Shown piece after piece: positions 12,694-62,294 of a DNA stretch of 64,000 nt (position 1 is the stretch's first letter; every line of letters starts with the position of its first letter). The stretch spans positions 9,580 through 73,579 of the IMG/VR virus record IMGVR_UViG_3300028483_000002; one strand, written 5' to 3'. The position numbers were made by a program, and so were the translations under genes. A model generated the notes under the pieces. That model did not search any database. It was not told where the DNA came from and saw only the letters and a program-made list of their open reading frames with translations. Source of the stretch: a virus. Taxonomy: Duplodnaviria; Caudoviricetes.

Positions 12694-14526
12694 CTATAAC
12701 CCACAAATCCCACATTCATTCAAAACTTCTTCAACCTTAAAAGCAATTGAATTAAACAATTCCGGATTTTCTGCTGAATAATCTGAAAACAATGATTCGT
12801 TATTAATTTCTTCAATGACTTCATCTTCATCTTCATCTTCAAAATCATTACAGAACATAATAATATCTTCTAAAGATTTTTTTATATCATTTGTATTGAT
12901 AATACGATTTTCTAACTCAGCACCATTTTCTATTGGTAGTAAAACAACCGCTTTATTTCCACTTTCAAATTTCACTCTGCTTTTGTTATCTCCAGGAATA
13001 ACTTGCATCTTTACATTACTTAATGGACCTAAAAAGTTTTGAACAGTCTTTAGGTAATCAGTATTAAAATATCTATCCCCTAGTTTTATAATTGAAAACT
13101 CTTTTTCTTCTTTCCCGTTATAATCTTTTCCTGTTACAACAGTTTTAGGAGCTGCTTTAATAATTGCATCAATACCATCTGGTATAGCACTTTCTTTCTG
13201 ACCGTCTATTACAAATACTTTATCCATATTAGTGATTTTATCTGTTTTAGTAGGTTCTTCAAATTTTTCTCTGCTACATAACATCACCTTTCCATCTGTT
13301 GTAATAGTCCAATCTTCTCCATCTATGTTATAGTTATGTTTTGCAAAACGTTTTCCTTGATCTGCATTACTGGCTTTTTTTATTGCTTTCTTCTCAAAAT
13401 CATCAAAAGTCTTTTGTTGTTTAGGTGTCATTTGATTCTGTTGTTTTTCTTCTTTATTTTCTTGGAAATACCCATCATCATTTATTTCCAAAGCTCCGCC
13501 TTTATAACTTTCCCAAATTTTTCTTGCAACATTATGATTAACTAATTTTGCCCACTCTTTTGCAATTTCATCAAGAGAAATTTCACTTTTTCTATCAGCC
13601 ATATATTCAATAAACTTATCAATACTACCTTTAAAATCTTCCACATGAGAATTTGCATATCTTTGAATTGTCGTAATTGGTTTTTTAAGCATTTTTTCTG
13701 TTGATAAAATTGTTTTATCAGAAACTTCGGTAACATAATCAATTTGTTTATCTGTAGCAAACTTTCCTTTAATTGCTACCTTTGTTTCATCTTTCTTTTC
13801 AGTTGATTCATTTAATTTATCTAGCACTTTTGCATATCCATCTTCACCTATTAAATTTTTTTCATTCTGAATTAGTCTTTGCCTTTTTATATAATCCTCG
13901 GCTTCCTTTTTTGTGTTAAATTTTTCTACTTCACGACCACCTTCTTCTGTATAAACATAGTATTTGTTACCCATTTTCTGAATTGTAGCTTTGTCGTATT
14001 TATTTGGTTTTAAATCTTTCTTTTCAGTATTTTCAGATTTACCCTTACTTTCAATCTTTCCAGATTGTCTATCTACTTCTGCCCTAATTTTATCCAAAAT
14101 AGGTAAGTCCATTCCATTTTCATCTTGAAATCTTTGTTTATTCTGCATTACAAAGTTCATAAGTTCTTCAACATCATCAATCTTTTTTACTTTTGCAATT
14201 AAATGTCCTACAGCAATGTTTGTACCTCTGCCTTCTTTTTCATACATTCTAGCCCATTTTCCAGGAGCAATCTTTTTATATTTTTTCCCCTTCCAAACAC
14301 GAACTGTACCAATCCCATAACCAGCCTTTTCAATCCATTCACCAGAAATTGATTTTTCCAAATATTTATATTTTTTTTCTTCCTTACTGAATTGTTCTAT
14401 TGCTTTTTTATAGTCTTTTGCTTCTTGTTTTTTAAGAATAGCAATTATTTCCTGTTTGAGTTCATCCAATTTTCTTTTACCAAGTGATTTCCAGATTTCT
14501 TTTAATACAGATTTTTGAATAAGCAT
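12694..14526 (-). CDS. Putative capsid-packaged cargo protein (shared GYGIGTVR module, C-terminal clamp-like domain)
   Basis: MLIQKSV leader; KAGYGIGTVRVWKGKKYKKIAPGKW module shared with 23458..24978; acidic tail after KKSL. Confidence 0.55.
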   Translation of the reverse strand: MLIQKSVLKEIWKSLGKRKLDELKQEIIAILKKQEAKDYKKAIEQFSKEEKKYKYLEKSISGEWIEKAGYGIGTVRVWKGKKYKKIAPGKWARMYEKEGRGTNIAVGHLIAKVKKIDDVEELMNFVMQNKQRFQDENGMDLPILDKIRAEVDRQSGKIESKGKSENTEKKDLKPNKYDKATIQKMGNKYYVYTEEGGREVEKFNTKKEAEDYIKRQRLIQNEKNLIGEDGYAKVLDKLNESTEKKDETKVAIKGKFATDKQIDYVTEVSDKTILSTEKMLKKPITTIQRYANSHVEDFKGSIDKFIEYMADRKSEISLDEIAKEWAKLVNHNVARKIWESYKGGALEINDDGYFQENKEEKQQNQMTPKQQKTFDDFEKKAIKKASNADQGKRFAKHNYNIDGEDWTITTDGKVMLCSREKFEEPTKTDKITNMDKVFVIDGQKESAIPDGIDAIIKAAPKTVVTGKDYNGKEEKEFSIIKLGDRYFNTDYLKTVQNFLGPLSNVKMQVIPGDNKSRVKFESGNKAVVLLPIENGAELENRIINTNDIKKSLEDIIMFCNDFEDEDEDEVIEEINNESLFSDYSAENPELFNSIAFKVEEVLNECGICGL

Positions 14527-14557
14527 TTTATTTTCTCCCCTAAAATAATTTTAAAAC

Positions 14558-14610
14558 AAAAAAAGCAGCCACAACTATAAAAGTTATGACTGCTCTTTTG
14601 AACACATCAA
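14558..14610 (-). promoter_or_regulatory. Late leader element L3
   Basis: TGATGTGTTC...GCAGTCATAAC-TTTTATA-GTTGTGGCTGC followed by T7; the stem is nearly identical to L2. Confidence 0.7.
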
Positions 14611-14695
14611 ATAAACACATTAAATATAATTATATTGTTATAATATATTTAAAAAAAGTCAATATCAATTTTCTTTCAACTTTTCATAAATCAAA

Positions 14696-15856
14696 TTAAT
14701 ATTCCCCTTTTTTATATTTTTCCAAAATAGAACTAGATGATTCTATTTTTTCCCTGCCACCTACCCCAAAGCACAAATCAACCCCTAAAGATTCACACAA
14801 ATCGCATTCCGGAACATTCTTATATTCGGATCTATCCCCACCATTGCAAAATGATAATTTTGCCATAGGATATTTTTCTCTAATTTTTGACAATGCAACT
14901 TTTACAGTTCCGTCAACATCAAAATCATCATAAATAACATCTACAACACCTTTTATTGAACGCAAAACAGCTTCCCTAGATTCACGCTGTAATAATGGCT
15001 GATGTTTTCGTTCTTGTAACCATTCATCACTATTCATAATTACTATTACACCGTCTTTTGATATTTTTGCGGCCTCTTTGATTAATTCAATATGACCTTT
15101 GTGCAATGGATCAAACCCGCCAGAAACGATGCTATATTTTTTTTCTTCTACCTCAAAACATAATTCTTGTGCATAAGGAAGCGACCTTGCCCAGTAAATA
15201 AAATCCTTACTCCATTCTGTCAACTTGTGAAATCGTCTTTGTCCTACAGAACACATATTCAAAAGATTTTCATAATTCATTGTTACAGTTCTTTTCTGTA
15301 ACCAACTTTCTGGAAGCAACCTGATAAGTTCTTTCCAATAGCGTTTGTCTTTTGTTTCAAGGTATATCTTTCTTAATCTTTCTAGTTGACCTATATGTTC
15401 TTCCCAATAATCATCAAAAAAGGAATAAGGTAGAGAAATATGGTCACAACTACCCATAAAGTCATCCATTTCAAAACAATACTTCGTTATTGGAGTATTT
15501 GCTAACTTGTGCATTGTGCTTGTACTGTTTGCAACGGTTCCAACTTTGTAAGTCGAAAATTCTTTCCACCAGTACAATGGAGCTGTAATTGTAACTTCAA
15601 CTTGTATTTGTCTAAGAAACTTTCTATGCTCACTTCCTGCTTTTATAAGTGTTTGTGCAAGTTTCATATCGTTTTCACCAATTATCGCATACTCGCAAAT
15701 ATTATTGTTTTTATGCAAAATAACCATATCATTAGTAACGTCATTTAGGGAACAAAATCCAAACTTACTGTCGATTTTATCCCAACTGTTTTTTGGATTT
15801 CTCATACCATATAAAGCGTTCTCAAAACCACAAACTCTTGTTCTATCAAATTTCAT
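14696..15856 (-). CDS. ThyX-like domain fused to a cytidylyltransferase-like (HxGH) domain
   Basis: N-terminal SEHRKFLRQI.V...ITAPLYWWKEF...LLPESWLQKRTVTMNYENL; C-terminal IVSGGFDPLHKGHIELI...NSDEWL...FCNGGDR...KIESSSSIL. Confidence 0.7.
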   Translation of the reverse strand: MKFDRTRVCGFENALYGMRNPKNSWDKIDSKFGFCSLNDVTNDMVILHKNNNICEYAIIGENDMKLAQTLIKAGSEHRKFLRQIQVEVTITAPLYWWKEFSTYKVGTVANSTSTMHKLANTPITKYCFEMDDFMGSCDHISLPYSFFDDYWEEHIGQLERLRKIYLETKDKRYWKELIRLLPESWLQKRTVTMNYENLLNMCSVGQRRFHKLTEWSKDFIYWARSLPYAQELCFEVEEKKYSIVSGGFDPLHKGHIELIKEAAKISKDGVIVIMNSDEWLQERKHQPLLQRESREAVLRSIKGVVDVIYDDFDVDGTVKVALSKIREKYPMAKLSFCNGGDRSEYKNVPECDLCESLGVDLCFGVGGREKIESSSSILEKYKKGEY

Positions 15857-16284
15857 TTCTTTTCTCCTTTTATAAAATCTTCTGCATTTTGTCTTGCATA
15901 TTCGTGAGAGTTATTTAACAAATCTTTAATAATCGCTTTTGCATATTCCAAATCTGTTTTTAACTCTTCAATTCTATTTGACCATTCAATTTCTCTTTCA
16001 TTAGCCCAATCTAACGATTGTTTTAAGTCTGTGTTATACTCTTTTATTTGCTCATTTTCTTCCATCACTTTTTGATTAATGAGTTCAAGTTCATCACAGT
16101 GTTCTTTTAATTCTTTAAACAACTTTGTGTTTTGTTCGTTTTTTTTACATAACTTTTCAACTGTTTTTCGACAACTCCAAACACCACATTCTAAATCTAT
16201 AAGATATTTATTCTCATCTGCATAATCTTCTCTTACTGGTTTTTCAGGACAAAATTTAAATGCAGGACAATTTGTACAAATCAT
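15853..16284 (-). CDS. Hypothetical protein (Cys-rich N-terminus, coiled coil)
   Basis: Coupled ORF with SD, no recognised family. Confidence 0.45.
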   Translation of the reverse strand: MICTNCPAFKFCPEKPVREDYADENKYLIDLECGVWSCRKTVEKLCKKNEQNTKLFKELKEHCDELELINQKVMEENEQIKEYNTDLKQSLDWANEREIEWSNRIEELKTDLEYAKAIIKDLLNNSHEYARQNAEDFIKGEKK

Positions 16285-16658
16285 TCTTCCACTCCTAATT
16301 GTTTAAATACTTTTTGCATTTTAGGAAATTGTTTCGCAAACCAATCTGTCATTTCTTCATTCGTAGCCCAATCACAATTTTCCCATAAACCACATTCAAA
16401 TAAGAAGGCGTGAATTATTTCGTGTCTAAAAACTGACGGTATATGTCTTTCTAGACCACCTGCAATAGAAGGGGCTTTCTTGTATTCTTCATCATATAAA
16501 TCACTGTTTATATGAATTTCTTTAAGAAACCTTTCTACATATCCATCTGCACGTGTCATTTTTGGGTTACATTTTTCGCTATCGTAAAAAATTTTGTATT
16601 TAACTCCTAAAACATTAACTTCTTTAGGTAATTTATTTGTACTAGTTTTTTTTCTCAT
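16281..16658 (-). CDS. Small zincin-like (HExxH) phage protein
   Basis: VFRHEIIHAFLFECGL...NEEMTDWFAKQFPK. Confidence 0.55.
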   Translation of the reverse strand: MRKKTSTNKLPKEVNVLGVKYKIFYDSEKCNPKMTRADGYVERFLKEIHINSDLYDEEYKKAPSIAGGLERHIPSVFRHEIIHAFLFECGLWENCDWATNEEMTDWFAKQFPKMQKVFKQLGVEE

Positions 16659-16852
16659 TATTTCATTCTCCAGTTACTTAAATTTTCGCAATCACAACCT
16701 TCAAATTCAAAAAGTTTTGTATAATCAATACAATTTTCGCAACATCTAAGATTTTTAATAATTTCTTTTAATTCTTTAATCTCATCTTCCTTTTGTTTTA
16801 GTAAAGTTTCGTTATTCGTGATTAAATTCTTCACAATCAAATTCAACTTCAA
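16658..16852 (-). CDS. Hypothetical protein
   Basis: Coupled small ORF with CCENC motif. Confidence 0.35.
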   Translation of the reverse strand: MKLNLIVKNLITNNETLLKQKEDEIKELKEIIKNLRCCENCIDYTKLFEFEGCDCENLSNWRMK

Positions 16853-17198
16853 TAAGACGTTTTTTAATTTCAGCGTTAAGTTGTTTTTCGTTTTTCAAAT
16901 CCTCTATTAATTTTTCATTTTTAGATTTTTCCCTCGATAAATCAGATTGTAGTTCATATATGCGTTTTGCAAGGCTTTGTTTTTCTTGTTTTAATTCTTC
17001 ATCAAGTTTTTGATATTCAGCAAATCGAACCCAAGACTTGTCATTGAATACTACTATTTCTATATCTTTCATTTGTTTAATATCCTCCTCCACACAAACA
17101 GTCATACCAAGAAATATTTTTACTAGACACAGATTTTCTAGATTGATAATTCTTGTAATTCTTCTGATTAAAATGCTCTTCCACTTTTTCGATTTCAT
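16812..17198 (-). CDS. Hypothetical coiled-coil protein (start probably near 17072)
   Basis: ORF track; SD GGAGGA precedes MKDIEIV. Confidence 0.35.
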   Translation of the reverse strand: MKSKKWKSILIRRITRIINLENLCLVKIFLGMTVCVEEDIKQMKDIEIVVFNDKSWVRFAEYQKLDEELKQEKQSLAKRIYELQSDLSREKSKNEKLIEDLKNEKQLNAEIKKRLIEVEFDCEEFNHE

Positions 17199-17433
17199 TT
17201 ACGACGCAGTAAGTAGCCATATAAAAAGCAGCCTGCCAGCTTTTTCGTTCAAAAGATAAAGGCAACCCTGCTTCAATCGAACATCCAAGAGAATTAAGTT
17301 TGTTAATATCTCTCTCTGATTTTGACAATAACCATTTAGCTTTATTAATTGTGCCACTAGGATTACGATGATGTTCTAAATAGTTTCTTTTTCCAAAAGT
17401 AGTTGTATAAGGTTTAATTATTGTTACTGCCAT
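17077..17433 (-). CDS. Hypothetical protein
   Basis: ORF in operon, no recognised family. Confidence 0.4.
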   Translation of the reverse strand: MAVTIIKPYTTTFGKRNYLEHHRNPSGTINKAKWLLSKSERDINKLNSLGCSIEAGLPLSFERKSWQAAFYMATYCVVNEIEKVEEHFNQKNYKNYQSRKSVSSKNISWYDCLCGGGY

Positions 17434-17436
17434 ATA

Positions 17437-17754
17437 CTAATCCTTGAATTTTGCAATTTCTTCTTCTGTTACACCCATACTTATTAACAATAAAACACAA
17501 TAGCCAATAATATCTGCTACATCGTTTACTCTTGGTTTTTCGTCTGTATTAGATTTAATTCTGCCAATTTTATCGTCAAGTCTAATTAAAATAGAATTTG
17601 TGGCATCTCCCTTGTAAAAAATATTATTAGGATTCAAGGCAGAATCACCATATTTGTGATTTTTATATAGCAACAAATCCTGCATTGCATTTGTGATTTT
17701 TTTAATTTTTTCTTGCGTACTTTCACAAAAAGGATAAATATTATTTTCAATCAT
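17437..17754 (-). CDS. Nucleotide-modification-associated domain 1 (DUF1599/Nmad1-like) protein
   Basis: LLLYKNHKYGDS...ILIRLDDKIGRIK...DVADIIGYCVLLLI. Confidence 0.65.
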   Translation of the reverse strand: MIENNIYPFCESTQEKIKKITNAMQDLLLYKNHKYGDSALNPNNIFYKGDATNSILIRLDDKIGRIKSNTDEKPRVNDVADIIGYCVLLLISMGVTEEEIAKFKD

Positions 17755-17912
17755 GATTTCTCCTTAAAATACCTGGTATAAATTTTATCTTTCAACGAAC
17801 CTAATAAAATTCTGGCACCAGGTAAGCCAAAAATAATTTTAATATAAGTTTTTTTTGTGGTGGTTACTTCTCCACACAGTTTTTTTGAACAATCAACGAT
17901 TGTTTTATATGT

Positions 17913-19595: not shown

Positions 19596-19610
19596 ATTTT
19601 ACTCCGTTTA

Positions 19611-20035: not shown

Positions 20036-23000
20036 TTAATTAATTCTGATATAAAATCTGCCATTCTTAATATAGAATAGTGATTTTTTTACAGTTTTTG
20101 GTTTTAATTCCTTTTCAACCTTTTTCAATTCTGCTTCGTATGTAGAAATCTTTCCTGGTAAGGTTTTTAGATTTTCCTGTGCTTGTTTTAAGTAATACTC
20201 ACCATTGTAATAATTTGTATTACCAGAATATCTTTCAACATCTTCTTTTGCACTTGCCAATTGTTTTTTCATATTAGTAACAGAATTTTTAAGTGCAGCT
20301 CTTTTTACCTGATTGTAATAAGGATTTGATGGGCTGATAGTAATACTATCTTTCTCAAAATAATCAGTCATAATATCTGAATTATTCTCTACTTTATCCG
20401 TTTCTGAACTTAAAAAACCTAACGATGAACCATACCTGTCTGAATGTACTTTTATTGGACCATTTACATCCCCAATACCATAATAAACAGAAACGTATTC
20501 CCCATCAGGTTTTCTAATTCCGTTTACAGTAAACTGATATGGTTTTACTTCTTTGGCTTTTGCTTTGGCTTTTTCTTTTAATTTTTCGTCAATAGTTGTA
20601 AGTTCAATTTTTACATTTTCGCCATTTTCACCATTTTGTTTTCTGTATTCATATCTGTAATTTGGATTACTGTGATAAGAATGGTTTAGCGGCCAACTTC
20701 CTCCATAAGACTTAGATTCAGAACCGTCTTTGTTTAATTTAATTAGATTAAAATGAGTTCCATTATTGGCAACATTTCCAATTCTGAAAAGACCATTTTC
20801 ACCTTTTGTGTAAGAGTTAGAAATTTTGACAATATCACCTTCTTTTATTTCTTGTCCTGTAGTTGTGTCTTTTACTTTAGAAACAACATTACCGTTTACT
20901 ACTTTTAAGCCATTTTTTTGAGCTTCCAGAATTCTTCCAATTTCTTGAACATTTTTCCATTGTTCTTCATCTTTTGGATCTTTTCTATGCCCCCAATATG
21001 AATACCCAGTTTTTGTTTCATACAACTTAGTCATAACATCATGAGAAGATTGTGTTTTTAATTCTCTTTCAATATCTGCAAGAGTTATCCTTGATGGTAA
21101 ATTACCAATTACAGATGGAGCAAAAATACCGGCACTCTGTTGATAACCTGCAATAAGTTCATCTAACATATCAGCCTTTGCTCTTTTTTCACCAAGTTCT
21201 TTTCCGCTACCGTCAGATGTTACAATATCATACATTTCTTTTGAATCTGGTACAGAAATTTTATCTCTTAACTTTTTAATTTCATCCAAAGATAATTCAG
21301 CAAAATCGTTTTTGTAATCTTCCCTAGTTTTGTTATATGAATCGTTGTATTCATCCCATCTATTTGATTCTAAACGGTACTGTTCCATTTCTTTATCTTG
21401 GTTATATTGTTTTTCTGCTTCATCAATTGCACCGTGTTCCAAAGAATTAGTTGTTCTATTACGCAATTCATCAAAGAATTTATCACCAACAGTTTGATTG
21501 TTTTTAATCCTATCAAGAATTCCGTTTTTCATTTTCCATACTTCGTCTTGACGTTTTCTATTCTCAATAATTTTATAAAGTTCAGAATAATTACCGTCTA
21601 ATAATAATTGTCCTTCTGTATGGTAATTTTCATCTTCCAATAACGAAAAGATTTTATATAATTCAACAGTATCACCATTATGAATTGCATTAGACCAACG
21701 ATGTACATAAGATTCTAATAAATCAGTAGTAATACCATGTTCCCATTGTTTTTCTCTTTCATCTTTAATATTTTCCCAAATATTTTGAAGCTCTTCTTTT
21801 GAAAAATCTTCAACAATGTCTTTATATTTTAGTTTTTTTTGTTGCCCACGTTCATCTAAGAAATCTTTTTTTGCAACAAATTTACCACCATTATCATATT
21901 GTTTTTTCAAATCCAATAAGAAAGTAGATAAATCATCAACTTTAGCACCAGCAATAATATTAACAAGATTATTCATAAACAATGGGTCTCTTTTTATGCT
22001 ATTTGCCATTAATCTAGCATAATTTCTATCATCCCATTCCCCATTTGAATCTTCATATACTTCTGCTACTTTTCCCATTAGATAATCAAAATTATCTTTA
22101 CTGATTGTGTAATTTCCAATAGCAGCGTTTAATGATGTTTGTGGTGTTGAAGTGTTTAGTCCATTATCGGCAGCATTGGTAATTTCCCCACTTTGATAAT
22201 AAGAATCGAATTCTTCCATGCTATCAAACTCAATTCTTTCACCATCTTTAGAAGTCATAATTGGAGCATCATTTTTATCAAATCCAACTATAGTCCAAAC
22301 TTTTCCCTCAAAATTATATTGATAACCTTCTTTAATTGGATCTTCAATTACAGTAATATCTTTTTTGGCATTATCATTATTCAATAAAGCAATCGAATTT
22401 CCATGTTCTTGTTTTTGCCCGTTTTCTTCTGCCTCATTAGCGACTTCTTGATTTGTTGGATTAAGTTTCTGTAAATCTTTAACAAATAGTCTAGCAACTT
22501 TTCCATCATCAAATTTTACCATAACCATTTTATCGCTAACTAAATTTGTAATAGAACCTGTTGCCCCATTAAATGACACTTTATCACCAATGTCAAAATC
22601 CAAAGTGTTATTTAATTCAACTTTTTTATCTTCTGGAACAGAATTATACATAGAGTAGATTTTTCTCATTAATGAGTTATTCCATTTTGTTTCAAAGTTT
22701 TTTTCATCATTAGAAGTTAAAGTTTGCTTTTCTTTTTTCTCTTGATCAATTATTTTCTGTTTTGAATTAGAAGATTTCTCTTTTTTGTTTGATGGTGTTT
22801 TATATCTGTCGCGATTGAATTTATCACTAAAGAATTTATCCCACACTTTTTTATTGGATAAGTATTCTAAGACGTGAGCCCCAAATTCATTTTTGGTTAC
22901 ACCATAAGCACTTTCTATGTTATTTCTAACATAAGCGTCTGTGATTTTTTCTTCTTTAATTCCAAAAATAGCCATCAAAGTTTTTAATGGGCTTTTGAAA

Positions 23001-23158
23001 TCTTTAGGATAAATATAGTTATATCCTTTCCCAGCCTTTTTTGGAATTCTTCTGATGTATTTATGACTTCTTCCTGATTTTTCGATGAAGTTATCCCAAT
23101 ACATTTTTGCAAATGTTTTTGAAACTGTAAACATTTTCTCCCCCCCCCTTATAAACAA
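20036..23158 (-). CDS. Large (about 1030 aa) putative capsid-packaged polyvalent protein (likely ATG 23134)
   Basis: KSGRSHKYIRRIPKKAGKGYNYIYP motif; KOW/SH3-like units (FDIGDKVSF, IKEGDIVKI); ends KKSLFYIKNGRFYIRIN. Confidence 0.55.
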   Translation of the reverse strand: MFIRGGEKMFTVSKTFAKMYWDNFIEKSGRSHKYIRRIPKKAGKGYNYIYPKDFKSPLKTLMAIFGIKEEKITDAYVRNNIESAYGVTKNEFGAHVLEYLSNKKVWDKFFSDKFNRDRYKTPSNKKEKSSNSKQKIIDQEKKEKQTLTSNDEKNFETKWNNSLMRKIYSMYNSVPEDKKVELNNTLDFDIGDKVSFNGATGSITNLVSDKMVMVKFDDGKVARLFVKDLQKLNPTNQEVANEAEENGQKQEHGNSIALLNNDNAKKDITVIEDPIKEGYQYNFEGKVWTIVGFDKNDAPIMTSKDGERIEFDSMEEFDSYYQSGEITNAADNGLNTSTPQTSLNAAIGNYTISKDNFDYLMGKVAEVYEDSNGEWDDRNYARLMANSIKRDPLFMNNLVNIIAGAKVDDLSTFLLDLKKQYDNGGKFVAKKDFLDERGQQKKLKYKDIVEDFSKEELQNIWENIKDEREKQWEHGITTDLLESYVHRWSNAIHNGDTVELYKIFSLLEDENYHTEGQLLLDGNYSELYKIIENRKRQDEVWKMKNGILDRIKNNQTVGDKFFDELRNRTTNSLEHGAIDEAEKQYNQDKEMEQYRLESNRWDEYNDSYNKTREDYKNDFAELSLDEIKKLRDKISVPDSKEMYDIVTSDGSGKELGEKRAKADMLDELIAGYQQSAGIFAPSVIGNLPSRITLADIERELKTQSSHDVMTKLYETKTGYSYWGHRKDPKDEEQWKNVQEIGRILEAQKNGLKVVNGNVVSKVKDTTTGQEIKEGDIVKISNSYTKGENGLFRIGNVANNGTHFNLIKLNKDGSESKSYGGSWPLNHSYHSNPNYRYEYRKQNGENGENVKIELTTIDEKLKEKAKAKAKEVKPYQFTVNGIRKPDGEYVSVYYGIGDVNGPIKVHSDRYGSSLGFLSSETDKVENNSDIMTDYFEKDSITISPSNPYYNQVKRAALKNSVTNMKKQLASAKEDVERYSGNTNYYNGEYYLKQAQENLKTLPGKISTYEAELKKVEKELKPKTVKKSLFYIKNGRFYIRIN

Positions 23159-23457: not shown

Positions 23458-24978
23458 TTACCTCTTAATTGCATTATATTCCATTTTTGCAAGTTGTACA
23501 ATCCTTTTACTAAATGGGCTTGCGTTTTCGCCATATTGGTATACATCAGCAAAGGCTTCTGCAAATAGTTCCATATCAGTTTCTTCTGCATAATCAGAAA
23601 TAGTAAGTTTAGCATCTTCATAAGACATACCATTTAATTGAGTTTGTCGTATTTGTTCGTATGCTTTTTTACAAATTTCTACATCAGAATACATTCCATT
23701 ATTTTTTAATAATGCTGCTAAAACATGAGCTCCTTCATGATACCCAAATGATTCTGCATTTAATTGCTCATCCCCTGCATGAAAATATATATTCTTATCT
23801 TCCTCTTTTTTTGTTCCATCTTCAATTATAAACTTAGATCCAAAACTTATTTCTATTGGTTTTTCATTAATAAATTGAACACACATTATACAATTTTCTC
23901 TCGTAATTCCAATTCTTGGGATTAATTTTTGAACTAAAGGAAACTCATCAAGAAATTCAAGTAACCCAATAGAACATTTTTTCGTATCTTCAAACATTGC
24001 TCTTTTTTTTAAGTCGTCAGAAACTTCAATGCCATATTTATTTACTATATTTTCATAATCATCAAAGTTTCTTGCTTTATTTAATATATTTTTAGAAGTA
24101 TCTCTTTTATTATATTCTTTATGATAATTTTTAAATAAATCAATTCTTTTTTCAATATAGTTTGCTGCATTTACTACCTTTTTATTAGGAATCCCTTTTG
24201 ATATTAAAAATTCTGAAACCCTTTCAATAACATTTTCTGTCGTAACATCTTTGTTTAATATTTTTCGTAATACAGTTTTATATTCTTTTTGAACTAGTTT
24301 ATCCCCAATAAATAATTTAAAATAATTTTGTATAGATTTATTGTTTCCTTTTAGTACACCTTGGTTTGGGAATTTTATAACACTGGTAATAAAATTTTCT
24401 CTCTCTTTAGAAATATCAGAAATATTATTAAAAGTAGTTTTGCTAGTATTAAGTTTAGATTTACGTTCATTCACAGCATTTTTTAATTCTTCTACAATCG
24501 GCAGTAATTTACCATCGCTATCCATAAATCTATTTGTATTTTCCATGACAAGTTGCAATAATTCATCAATACTTTTTGCATTTTCAATTTTCTTCTTAAT
24601 AATTGCAATTGATTGATTTGCTCCCCTAGAATGCACATCATAGATTTTTCGCCATTTTCCAGGAGCAATTTTTCTGTATTTATGCCCTTTCCACTCTCTA
24701 ACAGTTCCTATACCATATCCCCTAGATTTATTAATGCTATATTCAGTTAAAAATGTACGAGCCATTGAATTATCATAATCTTCAATCGCTTTACTAATTA
24801 TCTTTTCTTCTCTTACTTCACTTTCTTCTAAGATTTTTAACAACTCTTTTTTAAAGTGATTCAAAATCCTATTTGAATGTTTGTTTATTAAATTGTCATA
24901 AACACTTTTCTTTACTGTAATCATTTCATACCCCACCTTAAAATTGTTTACAATAATTCCGGGAATACTCTTACCCAT
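23458..24978 (-). CDS. Putative capsid cargo protein with C-terminal zincin metallopeptidase (toxin-like); likely ATG 24924
   Basis: MITVKKSV leader, KSRGYGIGTVREWKG module, GYHEGAH plus ISDYAEETDMELFAEAF. Confidence 0.65.
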   Translation of the reverse strand: MGKSIPGIIVNNFKVGYEMITVKKSVYDNLINKHSNRILNHFKKELLKILEESEVREEKIISKAIEDYDNSMARTFLTEYSINKSRGYGIGTVREWKGHKYRKIAPGKWRKIYDVHSRGANQSIAIIKKKIENAKSIDELLQLVMENTNRFMDSDGKLLPIVEELKNAVNERKSKLNTSKTTFNNISDISKERENFITSVIKFPNQGVLKGNNKSIQNYFKLFIGDKLVQKEYKTVLRKILNKDVTTENVIERVSEFLISKGIPNKKVVNAANYIEKRIDLFKNYHKEYNKRDTSKNILNKARNFDDYENIVNKYGIEVSDDLKKRAMFEDTKKCSIGLLEFLDEFPLVQKLIPRIGITRENCIMCVQFINEKPIEISFGSKFIIEDGTKKEEDKNIYFHAGDEQLNAESFGYHEGAHVLAALLKNNGMYSDVEICKKAYEQIRQTQLNGMSYEDAKLTISDYAEETDMELFAEAFADVYQYGENASPFSKRIVQLAKMEYNAIKR

Positions 24979-27692
24979 GAACCTCTACACCACGGATGAA
25001 CAGTTGCAATTGGAGCATCACCATCCAATTTGCCTTCCCATATCGCATATTTTGCATAAGGATCTTTTATTCTTTCGTTTGGCAATGGAACATCACTCCA
25101 CAATGCAATAGCACCTTTTAATTTTTGGCACTTTTTACAGGTGTTGTCATCTAACACTTCATAGCGTTCAAAATATACCTTTTCTTCTGGTTTGGTGTTG
25201 TACACTTCTTCTTTGATATAAGCTGTATTTGTTGCAATTTGTAATTCTGTATCAGCGATTCGTTGCATATCCCTATTCAAACTTGCGCATTTATCAAATA
25301 AGTTTTGAGCCACAACCGACTTGCTTGATTTGTCTCTTACACCATCAATTATTATTTGTTGGATATTATTTCTCATATCATCTTTAACACGTGTAACTCT
25401 TTGAGTTGCAGAATCAATTGCAACTTGAATTCTTGCAGCCCTTTCTCTAGTGATACTTTCCCCAAAAACATCTTTTATGTTTTTAACACTCTCACTTATC
25501 CAATCAACATCTTTTCTTTTTATTTTTAATTCAGACAGGTGCATTTTTTTTATTGCAGATAAAGAATTTGTTTTACTTAATCGTTCCAATATAGCACCTA
25601 ATGCTTCGCCACTCAGAACAATTTTTTCACCAATACCAGAATAATTACGATTTAGAAACTTTTCTAATTCTGTAATAAAACGTTGCCATTCTTTAGTTGA
25701 TATTGGTTTACCATTTTCAGGATTGTAAATAACCTTACCTTTCCATTTCAATTTAGCTTTACTTACAATTCTTATATCAGGTAAATCAAAATAAGAAATC
25801 ACAAAATTATAAATTGCTAAAGTTTTTTGAGATAATTCTCTAAACAATTTATCTGTCAGTTCTTCTTCGGCCTTGTACAAAAACTTTTCACCTTGTACAG
25901 TTTTCATGTTTGTATCTAAAGACAATGAAACTTTATGCAGAGCTTTTTCAATTTTTTCTTTGTCAAAATTTGTAAATCTCAAATATAAATTATCATATCT
26001 TGTAGATTTATTATCAGATTGAATATGTTTAATTACAAAAGGTTTATTTTCGTAAATTGCATTAAGAGCCTTTTCTAATTGTTCATACTTTTTTTGTTTG
26101 TTATTTTCTGTAATATCAGTTATACAAACATCAAAGGATTTATGTATTCTACTACCTTGTTTTGAGAATACAAAAGACTTAAATTGTTCTACAGTTAAAG
26201 TTTCCATACTTCCAAAAAATCCTGGTCTATCATATTGTTTCATATATGCTTTTTTTGCTGCTTCTGCATTTTCAAAACACAACATACATTTATCTTCATC
26301 GTATTTATGAGTAACAGGATTGTTTTGATGAATTACATAAACTTTTTTTGCGTTTTTATCAGGACCAATATAACAATCTACAAAGTCTGAATCAGTCCCT
26401 ACAGTTCCCCTAATATATCCATAATCATAGTGCATTAAAGTTTTCCACTTATGCCCATCTGAATCAACACCACTTCTATAAGTTCCTTTTTTATTTTCAA
26501 TGGAAATATCCATGCCATAAAGTTTAGTTCTACCCTGTAATTTATGGCCGGAATAAGTTAAAGATTTTGTTAAAGCCTTATATGCTTTGTACGCAATTAC
26601 ATTTTCTACATCTTGATGCAATTGTTCTTCTGCTACAAACCTTGTCAATTTATCATCATACTTCTGAATAACAGAATCATAATTTAAGCCTTTTTTATCA
26701 CAAAGATGATGTAATTCTACTTTCCAATCAGTGAATAATGATTTTGTAACATTTTTACTTGACAAATTATTACAATGCACTATATTAATAGATGGAGATA
26801 GACTACAATCCGGTTGTAGTTGTAACGCTTTATTAAGCTGTCTCCCCTTAAATCCCTTGCTATTTTGCAAGGGATATTTTTTTAACAAAAGTTCTACAGA
26901 GTAGACTAACTTACCTGTAATTTTATATTCCTTAATTGTAATATATGCCATTCCTTTTCTTGTAGATAATTGAATAGGTATATTTCCTCTGTAAATAGAT
27001 TCTACGTTGTCATCACCTTTCCTATCTGGATATTTCTTAAAGTTTTCAACATTTTCAACAAGTTCTTTTATCTTTGATGCCGCTTCAAAATGCTCTTTTG
27101 TTGAAAAACCATTTAGAACAGATTTATTTATAGCTTTATCACAAGATAATTTATCAATAGATTTTTGAGAAAATCTAAATGTTAAATCTTTATTATGAAA
27201 GTTAGTCTGTTTATATTTTACCATTTCTTTCTTAAATGTATTTCTAAGCTCTGTTCTTAAAAGATATTCATTATGATCAATTTTTAATACTTTCCAAGCC
27301 GGAATTTTTTCATTTTCATTTTCTTTGTTTATAAAAATATAATCGTGAGAACCATTTATATAATATTCATATAAATCATACTTAGTCTTATCTAACTTAA
27401 ATTTTATTGGTTTTTGTTTTTCATCGGAAAGACCCTTTAATTTTTTTATTCTTATTCCATAAACATCAGCATCATATTCATATACCCAATGCCCATTTAC
27501 CCATCTTTTATTACGATATTTATGTGATTTTTGTATTTCTTTATCATTTTCAGAATATAAGTCCGATTTTTGCAGATTTTCTGCAAATTCGTCATTTAAA
27601 TTATCTTTTTTTTCATTTCTAACTTGCTTATAACTTTCTAATTTCTTTTTAATTTCTTCTGCAACAGATTTTTCAATTACTATTTTTCCCAT
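24948..27692 (-). CDS. MuF-family head morphogenesis protein fused to LPD3/BECR-like and inorganic-pyrophosphatase-like polyvalent domains
   Basis: C-terminal MuF motifs RIADTE...DDNTCKKCQKLKG...HPWCRG; InPase-like ISIENKKGTYRSG...HYDYGYIRGTVGTDSDFVDCYIG...YDEDKCML; LPD3-like KEHFEAASKIKELVEN...YPDRKGDDNV...AYITIKE...LVYSVEL. Confidence 0.75.
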   Translation of the reverse strand: MGKIVIEKSVAEEIKKKLESYKQVRNEKKDNLNDEFAENLQKSDLYSENDKEIQKSHKYRNKRWVNGHWVYEYDADVYGIRIKKLKGLSDEKQKPIKFKLDKTKYDLYEYYINGSHDYIFINKENENEKIPAWKVLKIDHNEYLLRTELRNTFKKEMVKYKQTNFHNKDLTFRFSQKSIDKLSCDKAINKSVLNGFSTKEHFEAASKIKELVENVENFKKYPDRKGDDNVESIYRGNIPIQLSTRKGMAYITIKEYKITGKLVYSVELLLKKYPLQNSKGFKGRQLNKALQLQPDCSLSPSINIVHCNNLSSKNVTKSLFTDWKVELHHLCDKKGLNYDSVIQKYDDKLTRFVAEEQLHQDVENVIAYKAYKALTKSLTYSGHKLQGRTKLYGMDISIENKKGTYRSGVDSDGHKWKTLMHYDYGYIRGTVGTDSDFVDCYIGPDKNAKKVYVIHQNNPVTHKYDEDKCMLCFENAEAAKKAYMKQYDRPGFFGSMETLTVEQFKSFVFSKQGSRIHKSFDVCITDITENNKQKKYEQLEKALNAIYENKPFVIKHIQSDNKSTRYDNLYLRFTNFDKEKIEKALHKVSLSLDTNMKTVQGEKFLYKAEEELTDKLFRELSQKTLAIYNFVISYFDLPDIRIVSKAKLKWKGKVIYNPENGKPISTKEWQRFITELEKFLNRNYSGIGEKIVLSGEALGAILERLSKTNSLSAIKKMHLSELKIKRKDVDWISESVKNIKDVFGESITRERAARIQVAIDSATQRVTRVKDDMRNNIQQIIIDGVRDKSSKSVVAQNLFDKCASLNRDMQRIADTELQIATNTAYIKEEVYNTKPEEKVYFERYEVLDDNTCKKCQKLKGAIALWSDVPLPNERIKDPYAKYAIWEGKLDGDAPIATVHPWCRGSWVRVFPELL
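26759..26883 (+). ncRNA. Putative antisense sRNA (promoter 26759-26786, RNA about 26791-26883) inside the MuF gene
   Basis: TTGACA-16-TATATT; GGAGATAG/CTGTCTCC closing stem with two inner hairpins; terminator ATCCCTTGC/GCAAGGGAT followed by a T tract. Confidence 0.55.
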
Positions 27693-47604: not shown

Positions 47605-47606
47605 AG

Positions 47607-57228: not shown

Positions 57229-57255
57229 AAATACTCCTTTATCGCCTGTGGGATA

Positions 57256-57329: not shown

Positions 57330-57337
57330 ATAAATAA

Positions 57338-57412: not shown

Positions 57413-57433
57413 TTTTTATCCGATAATATAAAT

Positions 57434-57775: not shown

Positions 57776-57797
57776 TTTTTAATTGGCGTTTCTGAAC

Positions 57798-58904
57798 CTA
57801 CTGTTGCATAGGCATAATGATATGTTTTGTGTCATTCTGATTGTCATTATGGCCTTGCACTGTTATCGCACTAAGAATCTTACCATCAACAATAGAACAA
57901 CTAATTTCAATATTATCATCATTTATTACTTTTAATATATCTTCTAAGTATTGATAATTTATATGTAATTCAGCATTTGGAATTTCTGTTTTACAACTAA
58001 TTTCTTCCGCAGCATTACCTATTTCTGTGTCCGGTGTTGTAATTTTTAGAGAATTACCCCCAATATAAAATGACAATCTACCCGTTGAATTACTCATAAT
58101 TTTACTTCTTTTCATTGCTTCTTCCAAATCTTTTTTGGGAATAACAAAATTACTATCTAACCCAACAGGAATAACACGTGCATAACTTGGATATTGCCCA
58201 TCAATTAAGTTTGAATACAATTCAAAATTATTACAAAAGAAAGAAATTGATTTATCATTTATTTTGACAACAACATTCCCTTCTGTACCAAGTAATTCAG
58301 TCAAAATATTCAATACTTTTGTCGGAATAATAACTCCAGGAAAGTTTTCTGTAGATGATTTTGTCATAATTGACATTCTTCTTCCATCTGTTGCAACAGC
58401 AGTAATGTTTACCCCATCAGCAACAAGAAAAACTCCTGTCATAAAATACCTATTCTTTTCTGTAGAAACAGCAAAAATTGTATTTTGTATCATATTTTTT
58501 AAGTCTTTGCATGCGATTTCAAATTGTCTACAGTCTTTATTTGAGATAAATTCAGGAAATTTATCACTTGCCAACATTTTCATTTTGAACTTAACTTTTT
58601 TTGCATTTGGTTTAATAACCACTCCGTTTTCATCTTGCGATAATTCAACATCACCAGATGGCAATGAAGAAAGAATACTCATAAATTTATCACAGAAAAT
58701 TGTTATTATTCCTTCATTCTCAATTTCAACAGGTATTTTAGTTACAAATTTTACAGTAGAATCTGTTGCTCTGATTACTAATCTATTATCTTTTGCCTCC
58801 AATAAAACATTTGACAAAATGGATAATGGACTTTTATTTGCAATAACCTTTTGAGCAATTGAAATTTCTCTAATCATTGCTTCTTTGTTAAAAATAATTT
58901 TCAT
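57798..58904 (-). CDS. dnaN: DNA polymerase III beta sliding clamp
   Basis: 368 aa; LSILSNVLL, IRATD, FCDKF..IL..LP, TIFAVS...RYFMTGV, VATDGRRM, NLIDGQYPSYARVIP, INYQYL, HIIMPMQ. Confidence 0.95.
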   Translation of the reverse strand: MKIIFNKEAMIREISIAQKVIANKSPLSILSNVLLEAKDNRLVIRATDSTVKFVTKIPVEIENEGIITIFCDKFMSILSSLPSGDVELSQDENGVVIKPNAKKVKFKMKMLASDKFPEFISNKDCRQFEIACKDLKNMIQNTIFAVSTEKNRYFMTGVFLVADGVNITAVATDGRRMSIMTKSSTENFPGVIIPTKVLNILTELLGTEGNVVVKINDKSISFFCNNFELYSNLIDGQYPSYARVIPVGLDSNFVIPKKDLEEAMKRSKIMSNSTGRLSFYIGGNSLKITTPDTEIGNAAEEISCKTEIPNAELHINYQYLEDILKVINDDNIEISCSIVDGKILSAITVQGHNDNQNDTKHIIMPMQQ

Positions 58905-58914
58905 TTTTTTTCCC

Positions 58915-59223: not shown

Positions 59224-59227
59224 TTTA

Positions 59228-59521: not shown

Positions 59522-59531
59522 TTTTTCCTCC

Positions 59532-60089
59532 CTATTCTTTAAAATTATTGCCTGTGTTATTATTTTCTAAATGAACAAATTCCGTATGATCAATAAAATC
59601 ATAACAAACATATCCACTACAAAAACTCGATGTTTTCCCATTAAAAGAAACCTTTTTATCTGGAATAATGAATTGAATGCCTTTCCCAACAAACTGAAAT
59701 AAATTCCCAATTTCTTGATAATTTATCGCCATCATATTCATCAACAAAACAAAAGGCCTATGTAAATCAAAAATAATACGTTCAAAAACATCTAACTTTA
59801 AGCTAAATGGTGGATTTGAAACAATTAAATCGTACGATTCTGGCTCATACTCAAAAAAATTTTTTCCATCATTTAGATGGCTTCTAACAACCTGAAAACC
59901 TTTTTTTTGTAGTATTTCTACATATTTTGACGTTTCTTCATCGAAAGGACACCAAATAATAGGTTTATGACCATTTTTTGATATAAAATCTGATTCCCAC
60001 TTTTGAAGATAAGGAACAATCATATTAACAAGAACGGAAGGCGTTTTCCACTCGTCTTGTACCTTAAATGTTTTCTTAAAACTTTTCAT
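59532..60089 (-). CDS. Small phage N6-adenine DNA methyltransferase
   Basis: DEWKTP, IIWCPFD, FFEYEP..YD.IVSNPPFS. Confidence 0.8.
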   Translation of the reverse strand: MKSFKKTFKVQDEWKTPSVLVNMIVPYLQKWESDFISKNGHKPIIWCPFDEETSKYVEILQKKGFQVVRSHLNDGKNFFEYEPESYDLIVSNPPFSLKLDVFERIIFDLHRPFVLLMNMMAINYQEIGNLFQFVGKGIQFIIPDKKVSFNGKTSSFCSGYVCYDFIDHTEFVHLENNNTGNNFKE

Positions 60090-60691: not shown

Positions 60692-60701
60692 TTTCCCACC
60701 T

Positions 60702-61331
60702 TTATATCCATTTTATTTCTGGATTACCCTTAAATCCTTTTTCCCATACAAACCACCCATAAGCAATAGCACTTGACGGATATTTTTCAAAATCTCCATT
60801 TTTTGCACAGTTTCTGCGTTGTGAAAAAACATACAAGGTTCTAAACGGATTACTGTCAAATAATGCCCTTCTGCTTTGACTTTCTAAAAAAGTTAATTTT
60901 AAAAACATTGCTATTTTTGTTCCTTCTGGAGAAATGTTCAAAGCGTGTTCAACAAATTCTTTACATAATACATACGGAGGATTAGTTACAATATCATTTT
61001 TATTTTCTGTAATCCCCAAAAAATTTTTTATTTCTGTTCCAGGAAAACCTCTATCTACAATGTCTTTAGCAATTATTTTATACCCTTTTTCTTTAAGCAC
61101 TGCTGCTATATGCCCCCCACCCACACAAGGTTCTAATATTGTTTCAGAAAAACTTTCTCTTTCTAACAATTCATAAACAGCTCTTGGCTCTGTGGCATAA
61201 TAATCTTCATGCTGTCGTTCTTCTTTTGCGTAAGTTCTCGCACCATTACAAGTGAATATAGCTTTATTATTTTCAATCCAATCTTTTTTGTTTGATTTTT
61301 CTTCTATTTCGTTACCGAACAAATCAATCAT
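60702..61331 (-). CDS. Phage amino-methyltransferase (N6A/N4C)
   Basis: DYYATEP, ILEPCVGGGHI, DIVDRG, DIVTNPPY, LKLTFLES. Confidence 0.8.
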   Translation of the reverse strand: MIDLFGNEIEEKSNKKDWIENNKAIFTCNGARTYAKEERQHEDYYATEPRAVYELLERESFSETILEPCVGGGHIAAVLKEKGYKIIAKDIVDRGFPGTEIKNFLGITENKNDIVTNPPYVLCKEFVEHALNISPEGTKIAMFLKLTFLESQSRRALFDSNPFRTLYVFSQRRNCAKNGDFEKYPSSAIAYGWFVWEKGFKGNPEIKWI

Positions 61332-61514
61332 TCTTTACCACCTCAAATTGTACATCGCTAAAGTTTTCAGCCGATAAAATATAATCTTCATCTGCTGCCC
61401 TATACTTATCATCAACTAATTGCAAAGCTTCTCTTTCATTCTTTGCATCAACTTCTACAATCTTTACCAAATTTTCTGTTATCTTTACTTTCATTTATTT
61501 TCTCCTTTTTTTTA

Positions 61515-61669
61515 TTGACAAATATTTATTCTATCTGTAAACTATAGATGGTGATAGGAACGGTTTCAGTATCTACTATCGGACACACCAAGAAGTTGTC
61601 AATTAAAACTCCCTAGAAGGATCGGATATTGCACTTAACTGTGCCTCTATCGGGGCGGGAGTTTTTTTT
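61515..61669 (+). ncRNA. Putative convergent antisense sRNA (promoter 61515-61543, RNA about 61547-61669)
   Basis: TTGACA-17-TAAACT; 5' hairpin GATGGTGATA/TATCTACTATC; terminator AAAACTCCC/GGGAGTTTT followed by a T tract. Confidence 0.65.
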
Positions 61670-62294
61670 GTTTTAAAACCTTACACTTGCCTTTGTATTC
61701 AATAATTACATAACCATTCCTATTATCTTTTTTTATTTCATCTTTTAATTTTTTATACTTGTTATAAGTTATTTCACCCTTAATAGAAATGAAACAACTT
61801 GGAGCTTGTTTTTTTGTTTCATTAAATCTTGTTATTAGTTTATGTTCCCCAGTATTTTTTATTTCCATAAAATCTCTATCATTAAATAATTTATAAAAAA
61901 TATCAGCCTTTTTGTTATTAGAATAACTTTCTCTTAATAAATAAACATCAAAACCTAACATCTTTATTTTTTTACAAGTTTCTACTTCATCTTTACATCT
62001 TCCTTCTCTTACAGCATCTATTTTTCCAACAGAAACTTTTATACCTTCAAAATCTTCATAAGTTTCTTTTTCTAAATAATCTAAAAGTAATTCTCTATCT
62101 TTTTCAGATAATTCCATTATCCCTTTTTCTGTAAATCTTCCCTTATCATCTCTCGGATGCACAGCAGAATTAAATCCTTTTTGTACAGAATCTTCTTCAT
62201 GATTAAAAATTACATATATTTTAGGTTTATAATTCAACTTTTCCATTAGCTCATCATAAACTGATTTTCTTATTACTAATTTTACTTTACTCAT
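61647..62294 (-). CDS. Putative capsid cargo protein with HPRD motif and CdiA-C-like (PD-D/ExK tRNase-type) domain
   Basis: MSKVKLVIRKSVYDEL leader; QKGFNSAVHPRDDKGRFT; E.ETCKKI..LGFDVYLLRE...KKADI...MEIKN...KKQA..CFI. Confidence 0.55.
   Translation of the reverse strand: MSKVKLVIRKSVYDELMEKLNYKPKIYVIFNHEEDSVQKGFNSAVHPRDDKGRFTEKGIMELSEKDRELLLDYLEKETYEDFEGIKVSVGKIDAVREGRCKDEVETCKKIKMLGFDVYLLRESYSNNKKADIFYKLFNDRDFMEIKNTGEHKLITRFNETKKQAPSCFISIKGEITYNKYKKLKDEIKKDNRNGYVIIEYKGKCKVLKQKKLPPR

Follow-up and report, generated by a model that had tools for sequence, protein, structure and literature searches.

Why should several proteins of one phage, with largely unlike payloads, begin with nearly the same few residues? 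The question is raised by a 64,000-nucleotide stretch of viral DNA (IMG/VR record IMGVR_UViG_3300028483_000002, positions 9,580 to 73,579; hereafter the window), in which a preliminary description, made from the sequence, had singled out five proteins, here called P610, P506, P914, P1040 and P215. These were said to share a leader followed by lysine-containing protease sites, and to be loaded by means of this tag into the phage head for injection with the DNA. We recovered all five open reading frames (ORFs) with their leaders, all on the minus strand (Table 1). Having weighed the evidence set out below, we consider it somewhat probable that the phage's own prohead protease acts on the five proteins, and that they are packaged, trimmed in the head and delivered with the DNA. 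Our data support a match between their K↓(S/A/G) sites (the arrow marks the predicted cut) and the specificity predicted for this Herelleviridae-type protease. According to the same data, such sites are concentrated in the pro-regions at the N-termini of the five proteins, as well as in the scaffold, a small head protein and the tail of the portal. Taken by themselves, leaders and sites suggest, and do not prove, that the cargo is packaged, cleaved and injected.

Results

Five phage proteins with a common N-terminal architecture

A GGAG-type Shine-Dalgarno sequence precedes each of the five proposed starts (14526, 23134, 24924, 27692 and 62294), and longer ORF calls for P506 (from 24978) and P1040 (from 23158) were rejected as upstream read-throughs. 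Inside the P1040 ribosome-binding site (AAGGGGGGGGGAGAAA ATG) lies a G9 homopolymer (~23139-23147, minus strand), a possible slippage tract or assembly breakpoint.

Downstream of the leaders, the second motifs were all present as described, namely GYGIGTVR(V/E)WKG in P610 and P506, an HKY-type motif in P914 (HKYRNKRWVNGHWVYEY) and P1040 (HKYIRRIPKKAGKGYNYIY), and HPRDDKGRF in P215, and a K-(S/A/G) dipeptide stands before every one of them (IEK↓A, INK↓S, IQK↓S, IEK↓S and VQK↓G). The C-terminal tails were equally real: IKK↓SL in P610 (residue 548), VKK↓SLFYIKNGRFYIRIN in P1040 and MNK↓SINK↓SMLFI in the portal. To call the five proteins otherwise unrelated was an overstatement, P610 and P506 being paralogous over their first ~160 residues (37% identity). 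The Ser codons of the leaders differ (TCT, AGT, TCT, TCA) and extended DNA identity is absent, and so the likeness of the leaders is held at the protein level.

The arrangement that we propose is as follows. Each cargo protein would carry an N-terminal pro-region of 19-67 residues, possibly with further cut sites, which in four of the five would open with a strand-helix leader of ~16 residues, phi-phi-phi-x-K-(S)-phi-Y-x-E-phi. The pro-region would always end in K↓(S/A/G), 0-6 residues before a motif predicted to be retained (GYGIGTVRxWKGxKYxKIAPGKW, HKYxRRxPxxxGxxYxY or HPRDxxGRF). The cutting enzyme would be the HK97/Herelleviridae-type serine protease fused to the scaffold, with aliphatic-x-K↓(S/A/G) as its presumed site. 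Together with the protease-scaffold core, the pro-region, its leader acting as a putative targeting signal, would bring the protein into the assembling procapsid. The protease would then dice the pro-region, as it would the scaffold; it would also trim the C-terminal tail of the portal and would probably cut polyvalent proteins such as P914 between their modules. The mature enzymes would remain in the head and exit with the DNA.

A proposed cutting rule from the capsid protein and the protease

By homology, we infer aliphatic-x-K↓(S/A/G) to be the cutting rule of this protease family. The N-terminus of the major capsid protein reads ELEK↓ALNAGYGTNAANY (site LEK↓ALNAGYG), with a predicted propeptide of residues 1-21 (11026-11088), and the protein aligns from residue ~16 with Herelleviridae capsid proteins, its homologues including those of SPO1 and phi812-type phages and PDB entry 9row. 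Aligned with its predicted site is the A511 sequence EDALK↓SFTTGYG, the A511 record annotating a mature capsid peptide from S24. In addition, PDB chain 9row_B begins at the residue aligned with capsid A22, SPO1 gp6.1 has ALNK↓AL there, and phi-x-K↓(A/S) occupies the aligned site in 11 distinct related capsid proteins from viral contigs. The A511 annotation is said to have its experimental origin in work of Loessner and Scherer in 1995. Published K↓S cleavage data in Herelleviridae were not found in the literature searched.

The protease itself holds FCK↓SLNAGYGTNAADY (FCK↓SLNAGYG), a copy of the mature capsid N-terminus, as well as an N-terminal ICK↓SI. Twort and Team1 share this duplication between capsid protein (VVK↓SFQTGYGITPDT) and protease (FMK↓SFLTGHGTSPDT), and the scaffolds of both have seven V-x-K-S sites. 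With the Team1 (Kayvirus) prohead protease the window's protease is colinear (E 2e-7), the alignment taking in the two K↓S positions as well as the blocks with His and Ser; a PDB sequence search of the protease gave nothing useful. By itself, the protease-scaffold protein has 13 phi-x-K-S sites, and its counterparts in the relatives that supplied the 11 capsid proteins have 8-20 phi-x-K-(S/A)-type sites each.

Predicted sites and leaders stand out from the rest of the window

To gauge how far these sites exceed expectation, we compared phi-x-K-S-phi counts with composition-preserving per-protein shuffles. A set of eight motif-bearing or head-interior proteins (the protease-scaffold, the portal, ORF 9310-9606 and the five candidates) had 26 sites vs 2.5 ± 1.5 expected (z 15.8), a figure to be taken as descriptive, the set having been picked in part after the motif was seen. 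No enrichment was found in the remaining 92 ORFs, with 8 sites vs 9.8 expected.

The leader was modelled by a hidden Markov model (HMM) of 17 columns, built from 19 leaders that all came from other contigs or proteins, and scored on 100 real and 2000 shuffled N-termini. P215, P610, P506 and P914 ranked top in this order (25.0 to 13.1 bits; Table 1), the scores of the first two being inflated by orthologues among the training leaders; the best of the 2000 shuffles reached 11.5 bits and the next real ORF 5.2 bits. The expectation that a leader profile would outscore shuffled N-termini was therefore borne out for four proteins and not for P1040, whose MFTVSKTF leader went unrecognised. P1040 belongs with the cargo set by virtue of its IEK↓S...HKY module and its C-terminal tail. 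A looser N-terminal pattern gave a count of 7, which 1/300 shuffles also reached. This pattern matches a methylase-like ORF (59532-60089; MKSFKKTF, start MKSFKKTFKVQDEW) that resembles the P1040 MFTVSKTFAKMYWD; the ORF lacks the second module and has no leader HMM score, and its likeness to a leader is probably due to chance.

The header recurs on unrelated payloads in related phages

The first 165 residues of P506 match 128 protein clusters of 294-1644 aa. In 121/121 sequences examined, K-(S/A/G) lies directly before the GYGIGTVRxWKGxKYxKIAPGKW core, and K66 of P506 is invariant in alignments A1 and A3. Among 29 representatives (≤80% identity) the junction takes the form I-E-K↓(A/S/G), with Lys at P1 in 29/29, an aliphatic residue at P3 in 28/29 and A, S or G at P1'. 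The pro-regions before this junction vary in length (38-82 aa) and differ in sequence, and their 1748 aa contain 90 phi-x-K-(S/A/G) sites vs 17 expected (z 19); the payload remainder has 100 sites in 15,976 aa vs 111 expected. We found the header on at least 10 unrelated payload groups, including ddrB-ParB, PBECR1, PBECR3, LPD3 and ADP-ribosyltransferase, and its homologues carry Pfam domains PF18763, PF18809, PF18812, PF18798 and PF03496. This upholds the idea of a portable tag; the argument that one member lies 35 kb away from the others is weaker, the contig ends being open, so that on a circular map P215 could come right after the tail genes.

Roughly half of these homologues begin with a leader of the type MKVVVxAELIK↓SL or MKIVFQQSTLNALQK↓SL. 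What is conserved is the whole pro-region, that is, a strand-helix leader, often a further helix, a terminal K↓(S/A/G) and the retained basic/aromatic motif. KSV alone was rejected as the tag, the conserved unit being longer and having D, T, E or A in place of Ser in some relatives.

Related phage genomes have two or three tagged paralogues each, always next to the same head module. K↓(S/A) stands 1-4 residues ahead of the HKY motif in 11/11 distinct proteins of these relatives, with leaders such as MAKLVILK↓SV and MKFVINK↓SLYDEIEK↓S. A word-based search with the 70-aa N-terminus of P1040 found its own cluster only, so that the breadth of the HKY class rests on these 11 proteins from related loci.

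The HPRD motif stands exactly 6 residues after K↓(S/A/G) in 6/7 distinct cases, the seventh having it at residue 9 with no preceding lysine, and it occurs at N-termini and also deep inside proteins of 945-2310 aa. Homologues of P215 at 34-43% identity (P0125, P0126, P0128, P0134 and P0137) keep both the leader and the second site. In P0139, a 2302-aa protein of another lineage, seven copies of K-(D/E)-(W/F)-x-E-x-x-HPRD-x-x-G-(R/K)-(F/W) are strung along the protein. The HPRD unit is a widespread inter-module motif, and the residue after its lysine differs outside this clade; nothing on the motif was found in the literature searched.

Across these contigs, leaders were 13-fold enriched on motif-bearing ORFs (15/47 vs 14/408, Fisher p 5e-9). 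Several of the leader matches on other ORFs make up a fourth tagged class, in which the leader is joined to EK↓(A/S)FGKKDLSKL. In this class the leader (KVMFSKSVYAEMEK) is followed by (A/S)FGKKDLSKL, and the genes directly follow header-bearing cargo genes (Table 1).

Other predicted substrates of the protease

The C-terminal tail of the portal (28528-28554) sets its two K↓S sites after an acidic tract. Almost all of 13 distinct related portals (≥46% identity) finish with phi-x-K-S and a short run of mostly hydrophobic residues, which looks like a conserved removable tail; examples, again after an acidic tract, are VQKSILII and VNKSLNFNF (loci L001, L008, L018, L019 and L023-L035). A tail like that of P1040, K↓S followed by phi-phi-phi-K-(N/D)-G-R-F-phi-I-R, also ends homologous cargo proteins in L017, L032 and L041. 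Two K↓S sites in tandem close the acidic N-terminal extension (VFNK↓SLINK↓SVV) of the small DUF7349 protein (9310-9606); none of this kind were seen in the genes that occupy the corresponding place behind the capsid gene in A511, Twort and Team1 (gp87, ORF138 and ORF098).

Within P914, phi-x-K↓S sites lie between modules, at residues 188, 315, 374, 516, 539 and 581. Of these, K374↓S and K516↓S flank the InPase module and coincide with the boundaries of BLAST segments in relatives. Ahead of every InPase module stands phi-x-K↓SLT(Y/W/F)SG, irrespective of the sequence further upstream (P914; L019, L023, L024, L028 and L031), and stand-alone MuF proteins of relatives start 4-20 residues from the position of P914 K516↓S517. 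This coincidence with module boundaries fits a predicted processing of polyvalent proteins into their modules.

Payloads and predicted structures

The payloads had been given functions from sequence, and these held to differing degrees. P914 is indeed a protein of LPD3, InPase and MuF by Pfam (PF18798, PF18823 and PF04233, the MuF score being below the Pfam cut-off), with MuF at residues 775-870 of 914. The reading of P215 as a CdiA-like nuclease finds some backing in its predicted fold, which comes closest to CdiA-CT of B. pseudomallei (4g6v_A; Z 8.8, rmsd 3.8 over 114 residues) and next to restriction endonucleases (Z 7) and Hjc resolvases, and none in a sequence-level match; a KAD...F-x-E-x-K pattern is conserved in its alignment A2. 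P506 has the HEGAH (HExxH) motif expected of a zincin, and its fold matches are weak (4l7a, Foldseek probability 0.98, E 0.017, and M34-family peptidases, none better than E 0.017). For the clamp-like domain of P610, weak Atlas leads were all that emerged (TM 0.33-0.38, feature score 0.77), with no Pfam or PDB sequence match. The phage encodes a complete DNA polymerase III beta sliding clamp of its own at 57798-58904, with three Pfam domains and separate from P610. Searches of Pfam and PHROGs with P610, P506, P1040 and P215 gave nothing informative, and no Pfam domain in these four; P1040 had no match in the Atlas, and PDB sequence searches of three payloads gave nothing useful.

In the AlphaFold model of P215, residues 58-215 have a pLDDT of ~90, and residues 1-57, of low pLDDT, are weakly predicted as strand-helix-strand, with a strand at 6-9 and a helix at 10-19. 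In that of P506, a long N-terminal helix leads into a linker (residues 56-69, pLDDT below 50) around K66↓S67, after which come a three-stranded sheet (GTVREW/KYRKIA/KWRKIY), a helical bundle, a disordered linker and the payload. The predicted sites thus fall in low-confidence segments and are presumably flexible and accessible.

The phage and its head module

The window is part of a single 73.6-kb phage contig with open ends, a G+C content of 28-33% and nearly all genes on the minus strand. The portal and capsid protein are distant homologues (~25-30% identity) of those of the Herelleviridae phages A511, Twort, the phage K group and SPO1, and the names attached to homologous proteins in their sources are 'Herelleviridae sp.' metagenome-assembled genomes and Treponema contigs. 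A near-DNA search of the cargo region and a tblastn search with P506 found no match among 50,697 phage records, which marks this as a phage without a close cultured relative; with the protease as single query, a search for related loci also found no relative.

Four of the five cargo genes are located between portal and protease, as in the relatives, and leaderless genes are interspersed with them inside the head module (14696-19595). The fifth, P215, shares 8 nt at its start with the PAPS-reductase-like gene upstream of it, and its neighbours are methylase and modification genes. No terminal overlap of the 73.6-kb contig was found; with the contig ends open, P215 may be closer to the late genes than the linear map suggests. 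At the very end of the contig there is a C11 run, which is possibly a slippage tract or an assembly breakpoint.

Table 1. Positions of the cargo genes, their predicted pro-regions and other features (window coordinates, except for the fourth-class genes, which are given by locus)
Feature	Position	Strand	Remarks
Sheath	2393-4132		late region
Small head protein, DUF7349	9310-9606	(-)	
Major capsid protein	9637-11088	(-)	phrog_752
Prohead protease fused to scaffold-like C-terminal half	11102-12547	(-)	phrog_1028; colinear with Kayvirus prohead protease
P610, cargo: pro-region, shared N-domain, unassigned payload, acidic C-terminal tail after IKK↓SL	12694..14526	(-)	N-domain homologous to P506
P610 predicted pro-region, residues 1-67: leader MLIQK↓S, IWK↓S, LEK↓S, boundary IEK↓A directly before GYGIGTVRVWKG	14326..14526	(-)	leader HMM 14.3 bits
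Cytidylyltransferase-like fusion, no leader	14696-15856		within head module
Methyltransferase with DUF4942, no leader	17913-19595		within head module
P1040, large cargo	20036..23134	(-)	only phrog_18160, function unassigned
P1040 C-terminal tail after VKK↓S: SLFYIKNGRFYIRIN	20039..20083	(-)	like tails in relatives
P1040 predicted pro-region, residues 1-19: MFTVSKTFAKMYWDNFIEK↓S, then GRSHKYIRRIPKKAGKGYNYIY	23078..23134	(-)	K↓S...HKY spacing in relatives
P506, cargo: pro-region, shared N-domain, HExxH zincin-like payload	23458..24924	(-)	
P506 predicted pro-region, residues 1-66: leader MITVKK↓S, helix LNHFKKELLKILE, ISK↓A, boundary INK↓S before RGYGIGTVREWKG	24727..24924	(-)	leader HMM 13.8 bits
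P914, polyvalent protein LPD3 + InPase + MuF	24948..27692	(-)	Pfam PF18798, PF18823, PF04233
P914 predicted pro-region, residues 1-55: leader MGKIVIEK↓S, LQK↓S, IQK↓S directly before HKYRNKRWVNGHWVYEY	27528..27692	(-)	leader HMM 13.1 bits
Portal	28525-30105	(-)	Pfam/PHROG portal match
Terminase	35604-37235		late region
P215, small cargo candidate: pro-region, HPRD motif, PD-(D/E)xK nuclease-like payload	61647..62294	(-)	
P215 predicted pro-region, residues 1-39: leader MSKVKLVIRK↓SVYDELMEKL; ends VQK↓G, six residues before HPRDDKGRF	62178..62294	(-)	leader HMM 25.0 bits
Fourth-class gene, L020	11687-12232		
Fourth-class gene, L023	12116-13363		
Fourth-class gene, L024	12476-13756		
Fourth-class gene, L030	12445-13695		

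Discussion

Weighing the proposed processing

Several findings speak against the proposal that the five proteins are packaged and trimmed by the prohead protease, in addition to the way in which the eight-protein set was chosen. The specificity is anchored in one annotated mature peptide, which belongs to the capsid protein of a different Herelleviridae genus. Payloads show no depletion of sites. The other half or so of the header homologues are without the extreme leader and start at a helix, LNYFKKxLxxILE, with the first site near residue 29, and so the leader cannot be the sole targeting element. At the leader position two relatives have K-D and one has K-E, and the leader Ser may accordingly be a helix N-cap rather than part of a cut site. 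The lysine before HPRD is kept where D or E follows, as in P0139, and so may belong to the motif; likewise, K-S-L-T-Y-S-G at the InPase junction may be an element of the domain itself. Finally, P215 may not be a late gene, seeing that it overlaps the PAPS-reductase-like gene and lies among modification genes.

Some of these findings would sit well with a pro-region that serves as an inhibitory or chaperoning prodomain, keeping the enzymes inactive until the prohead protease removes it, while incorporation depends on the retained motifs (GYGIGTVR/HKY/HPRD) or on contacts between MuF and the portal. The missing extreme leader in half of the homologues is one of them, and so is the recurrence of HPRD in the 2302-aa P0139 with a different residue after the lysine; moreover, conservation is far stronger in the retained motifs than in the leaders, and there is no obvious immunity gene beside the nuclease-like payload of P215. 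We nevertheless regard this account as unlikely: the pro-regions are short, mostly helical or disordered, and unpacked against the payload in the models, and a single header on at least ten unrelated payloads is hard to reconcile with specific inhibition. A prodomain role is, in any case, compatible with packaging and trimming by the protease and does not exclude them.

It is quite unlikely, in our view, that the N-termini are mobile headers that are never processed, spread by recombination among polyvalent-protein genes and having a structural or oligomerisation role. The K-S of the leader would then be a strand-to-helix junction with Ser as the helix cap, and the other K-(S/A/G) dipeptides would be parts of conserved motifs. 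The classic helix caps S, T and D are indeed all seen at the leader position, the P215 model has, at low confidence, a strand (6-9) directly followed by a helix (10-19), and the lysine before HPRD is conserved ahead of D or E. Yet such headers would leave unexplained the ~10-fold enrichment of the same tetrapeptide in the scaffold half, the portal C-terminus and the small head protein, the match to the annotated A511 maturation site, and the enrichment in pro-regions but not in payloads. Chance, in a genome of such low G+C (30%) where Lys-rich N-termini are common and K-S dipeptides frequent, is a very improbable source of the pattern, even though the loose pattern also matched an unrelated methylase-like ORF and its count was reached by one of the shuffles, for the site excess over composition-preserving shuffles is confined to head proteins, an HMM made from leaders of other phages separates four of the proteins from all 2000 shuffles, and homologues of 34-70% identity keep the sites.

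Comparison with known packaging systems

Processing by the prohead protease, as we propose for the five proteins, has its closest counterpart in phage T4, where a capsid targeting sequence (CTS) on the internal proteins IPI-III is removed by the prohead protease gp21 (PMC3012670; Mullaney and Black 1996, as cited in PMC10052503). Here too, a short N-terminal leader stands on diverse proteins (packaged, injected and anti-host in T4), by HMM on four of the five, P1040 failing, and the leader ends in phi-x-K↓S, the presumed recognition site of the prohead protease that the phage encodes; targeting, in this phage, is predicted from sequence. T4-type prohead proteases cut after Glu. The protease of the window, by contrast, is of the HK97/Herelleviridae type (phrog_1028, Kayvirus homologue) and not of the gp21 type, with a predicted Lys at P1. 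Moreover, the pro-regions are longer than in T4 (19-67 aa), have several sites and are followed by basic/aromatic motifs predicted to be retained, and the cargo includes large polyvalent proteins. Given the difference in protease type and P1 residue, the tag is not a member of the T4 CTS family, though it would work like one.

Giant phages offer a second precedent: in SPN3US and phiKZ, head and ejection proteins have N-terminal propeptides that are cut by gp245/gp175 (PMC10052503, PMC5694885), the SPN3US ejection protein gp54 being among the head proteins with such a propeptide (PMC10052503). As in the window, several head-internal proteins there have multi-site propeptides of variable length, and the giant-phage protease processes itself and the portal; unlike in the window, the cut follows a Glu-ending motif, the lineage is another one and no short leader is common to the proteins.

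Polyvalent proteins encoded beside portal genes are predicted to be packaged and injected, according to Iyer, Burroughs, Anand, de Souza and Aravind (2017, PMC5512222). P914, with LPD3, InPase and MuF, and the header homologues, with ddrB-ParB, PBECR1/3, LPD3 and ADP-ribosyltransferase (ART), resemble these proteins, as does the position of the genes in a head-morphogenesis neighbourhood. The difference lies in processing, which Iyer et al. assign to embedded MPTase peptidase domains; an N-terminal leader, a K↓(S/A/G) junction or the GYGIGTVR, HKY and HPRD motifs were not found in the passages searched. In the MuF polymorphic toxins of temperate phages (Jamet et al. 2017, PMC5576092), a MuF head protein from the packaging module likewise serves as a vehicle for enzymatic or toxic domains; there, an N-terminal MuF is followed by a C-terminal toxin and a downstream immunity gene. 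In P914 the order is reversed, MuF being C-terminal, and most of the cargo is without MuF and has a header that is predicted to be cleavable.

With the Herelleviridae (A511, Twort, the phage K group and SPO1) the window shares homologous portal, protease and capsid proteins, phi-x-K↓(S/A) at the aligned capsid site, a protease that copies the N-terminal motif of the capsid protein, and a scaffold rich in V-x-K-S. In A511, Twort and Team1, by contrast, the protease gene comes directly after the portal gene, with no MuF or cargo gene between them; furthermore, protease and scaffold are fused in the window, and the genome is about half the size. Scanned over the first 50 kb of A511, the leader HMM found no match; it seems, then, that cargo tags are a trait of the uncultured clade and not of classical Herelleviridae.

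Implications

A known logic, that of the T4 CTS and the giant-phage propeptides, would here be applied to polyvalent proteins, with a different type of protease and a different P1 residue. More tentatively, the heads of this uncultured clade, and possibly of other lineages, could follow a general two-part cargo grammar, which we put forward as a possibility more doubtful than the processing itself. A disposable terminal tag would act through the protease's own cut site, and a short retained motif, exposed as the new N-terminus, would be the true signal for retention or ejection; giant polyvalent proteins would be cut at these junctions, too, into separate enzymes inside the capsid. The tag, a strand or a helix, may then be N-terminal on cargo and C-terminal on the portal and P1040-type proteins. 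The HPRD copies of P0139, with their other residue after the lysine, hint at a motif set that is shared across protease specificities.

The proposal defines a protease specificity, aliphatic-x-K↓(S/A/G), that can be tested, although trypsin-based virion proteomics would be blind to these cuts because trypsin also cleaves after Lys. If the proposal is true, it predicts cut points in giant polyvalent proteins and bears on how these are deployed, a question left open by Iyer et al. (2017). It would also reach beyond the clade, as A511, Twort, Team1 and SPO1 keep the same capsid site and Herelleviridae are used therapeutically: a similar tag might load foreign proteins into their heads, as the T4 CTS does. 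For the uncultured clade as a whole, it would provide a readable rule for which proteins these phages load into their heads and deliver at infection.

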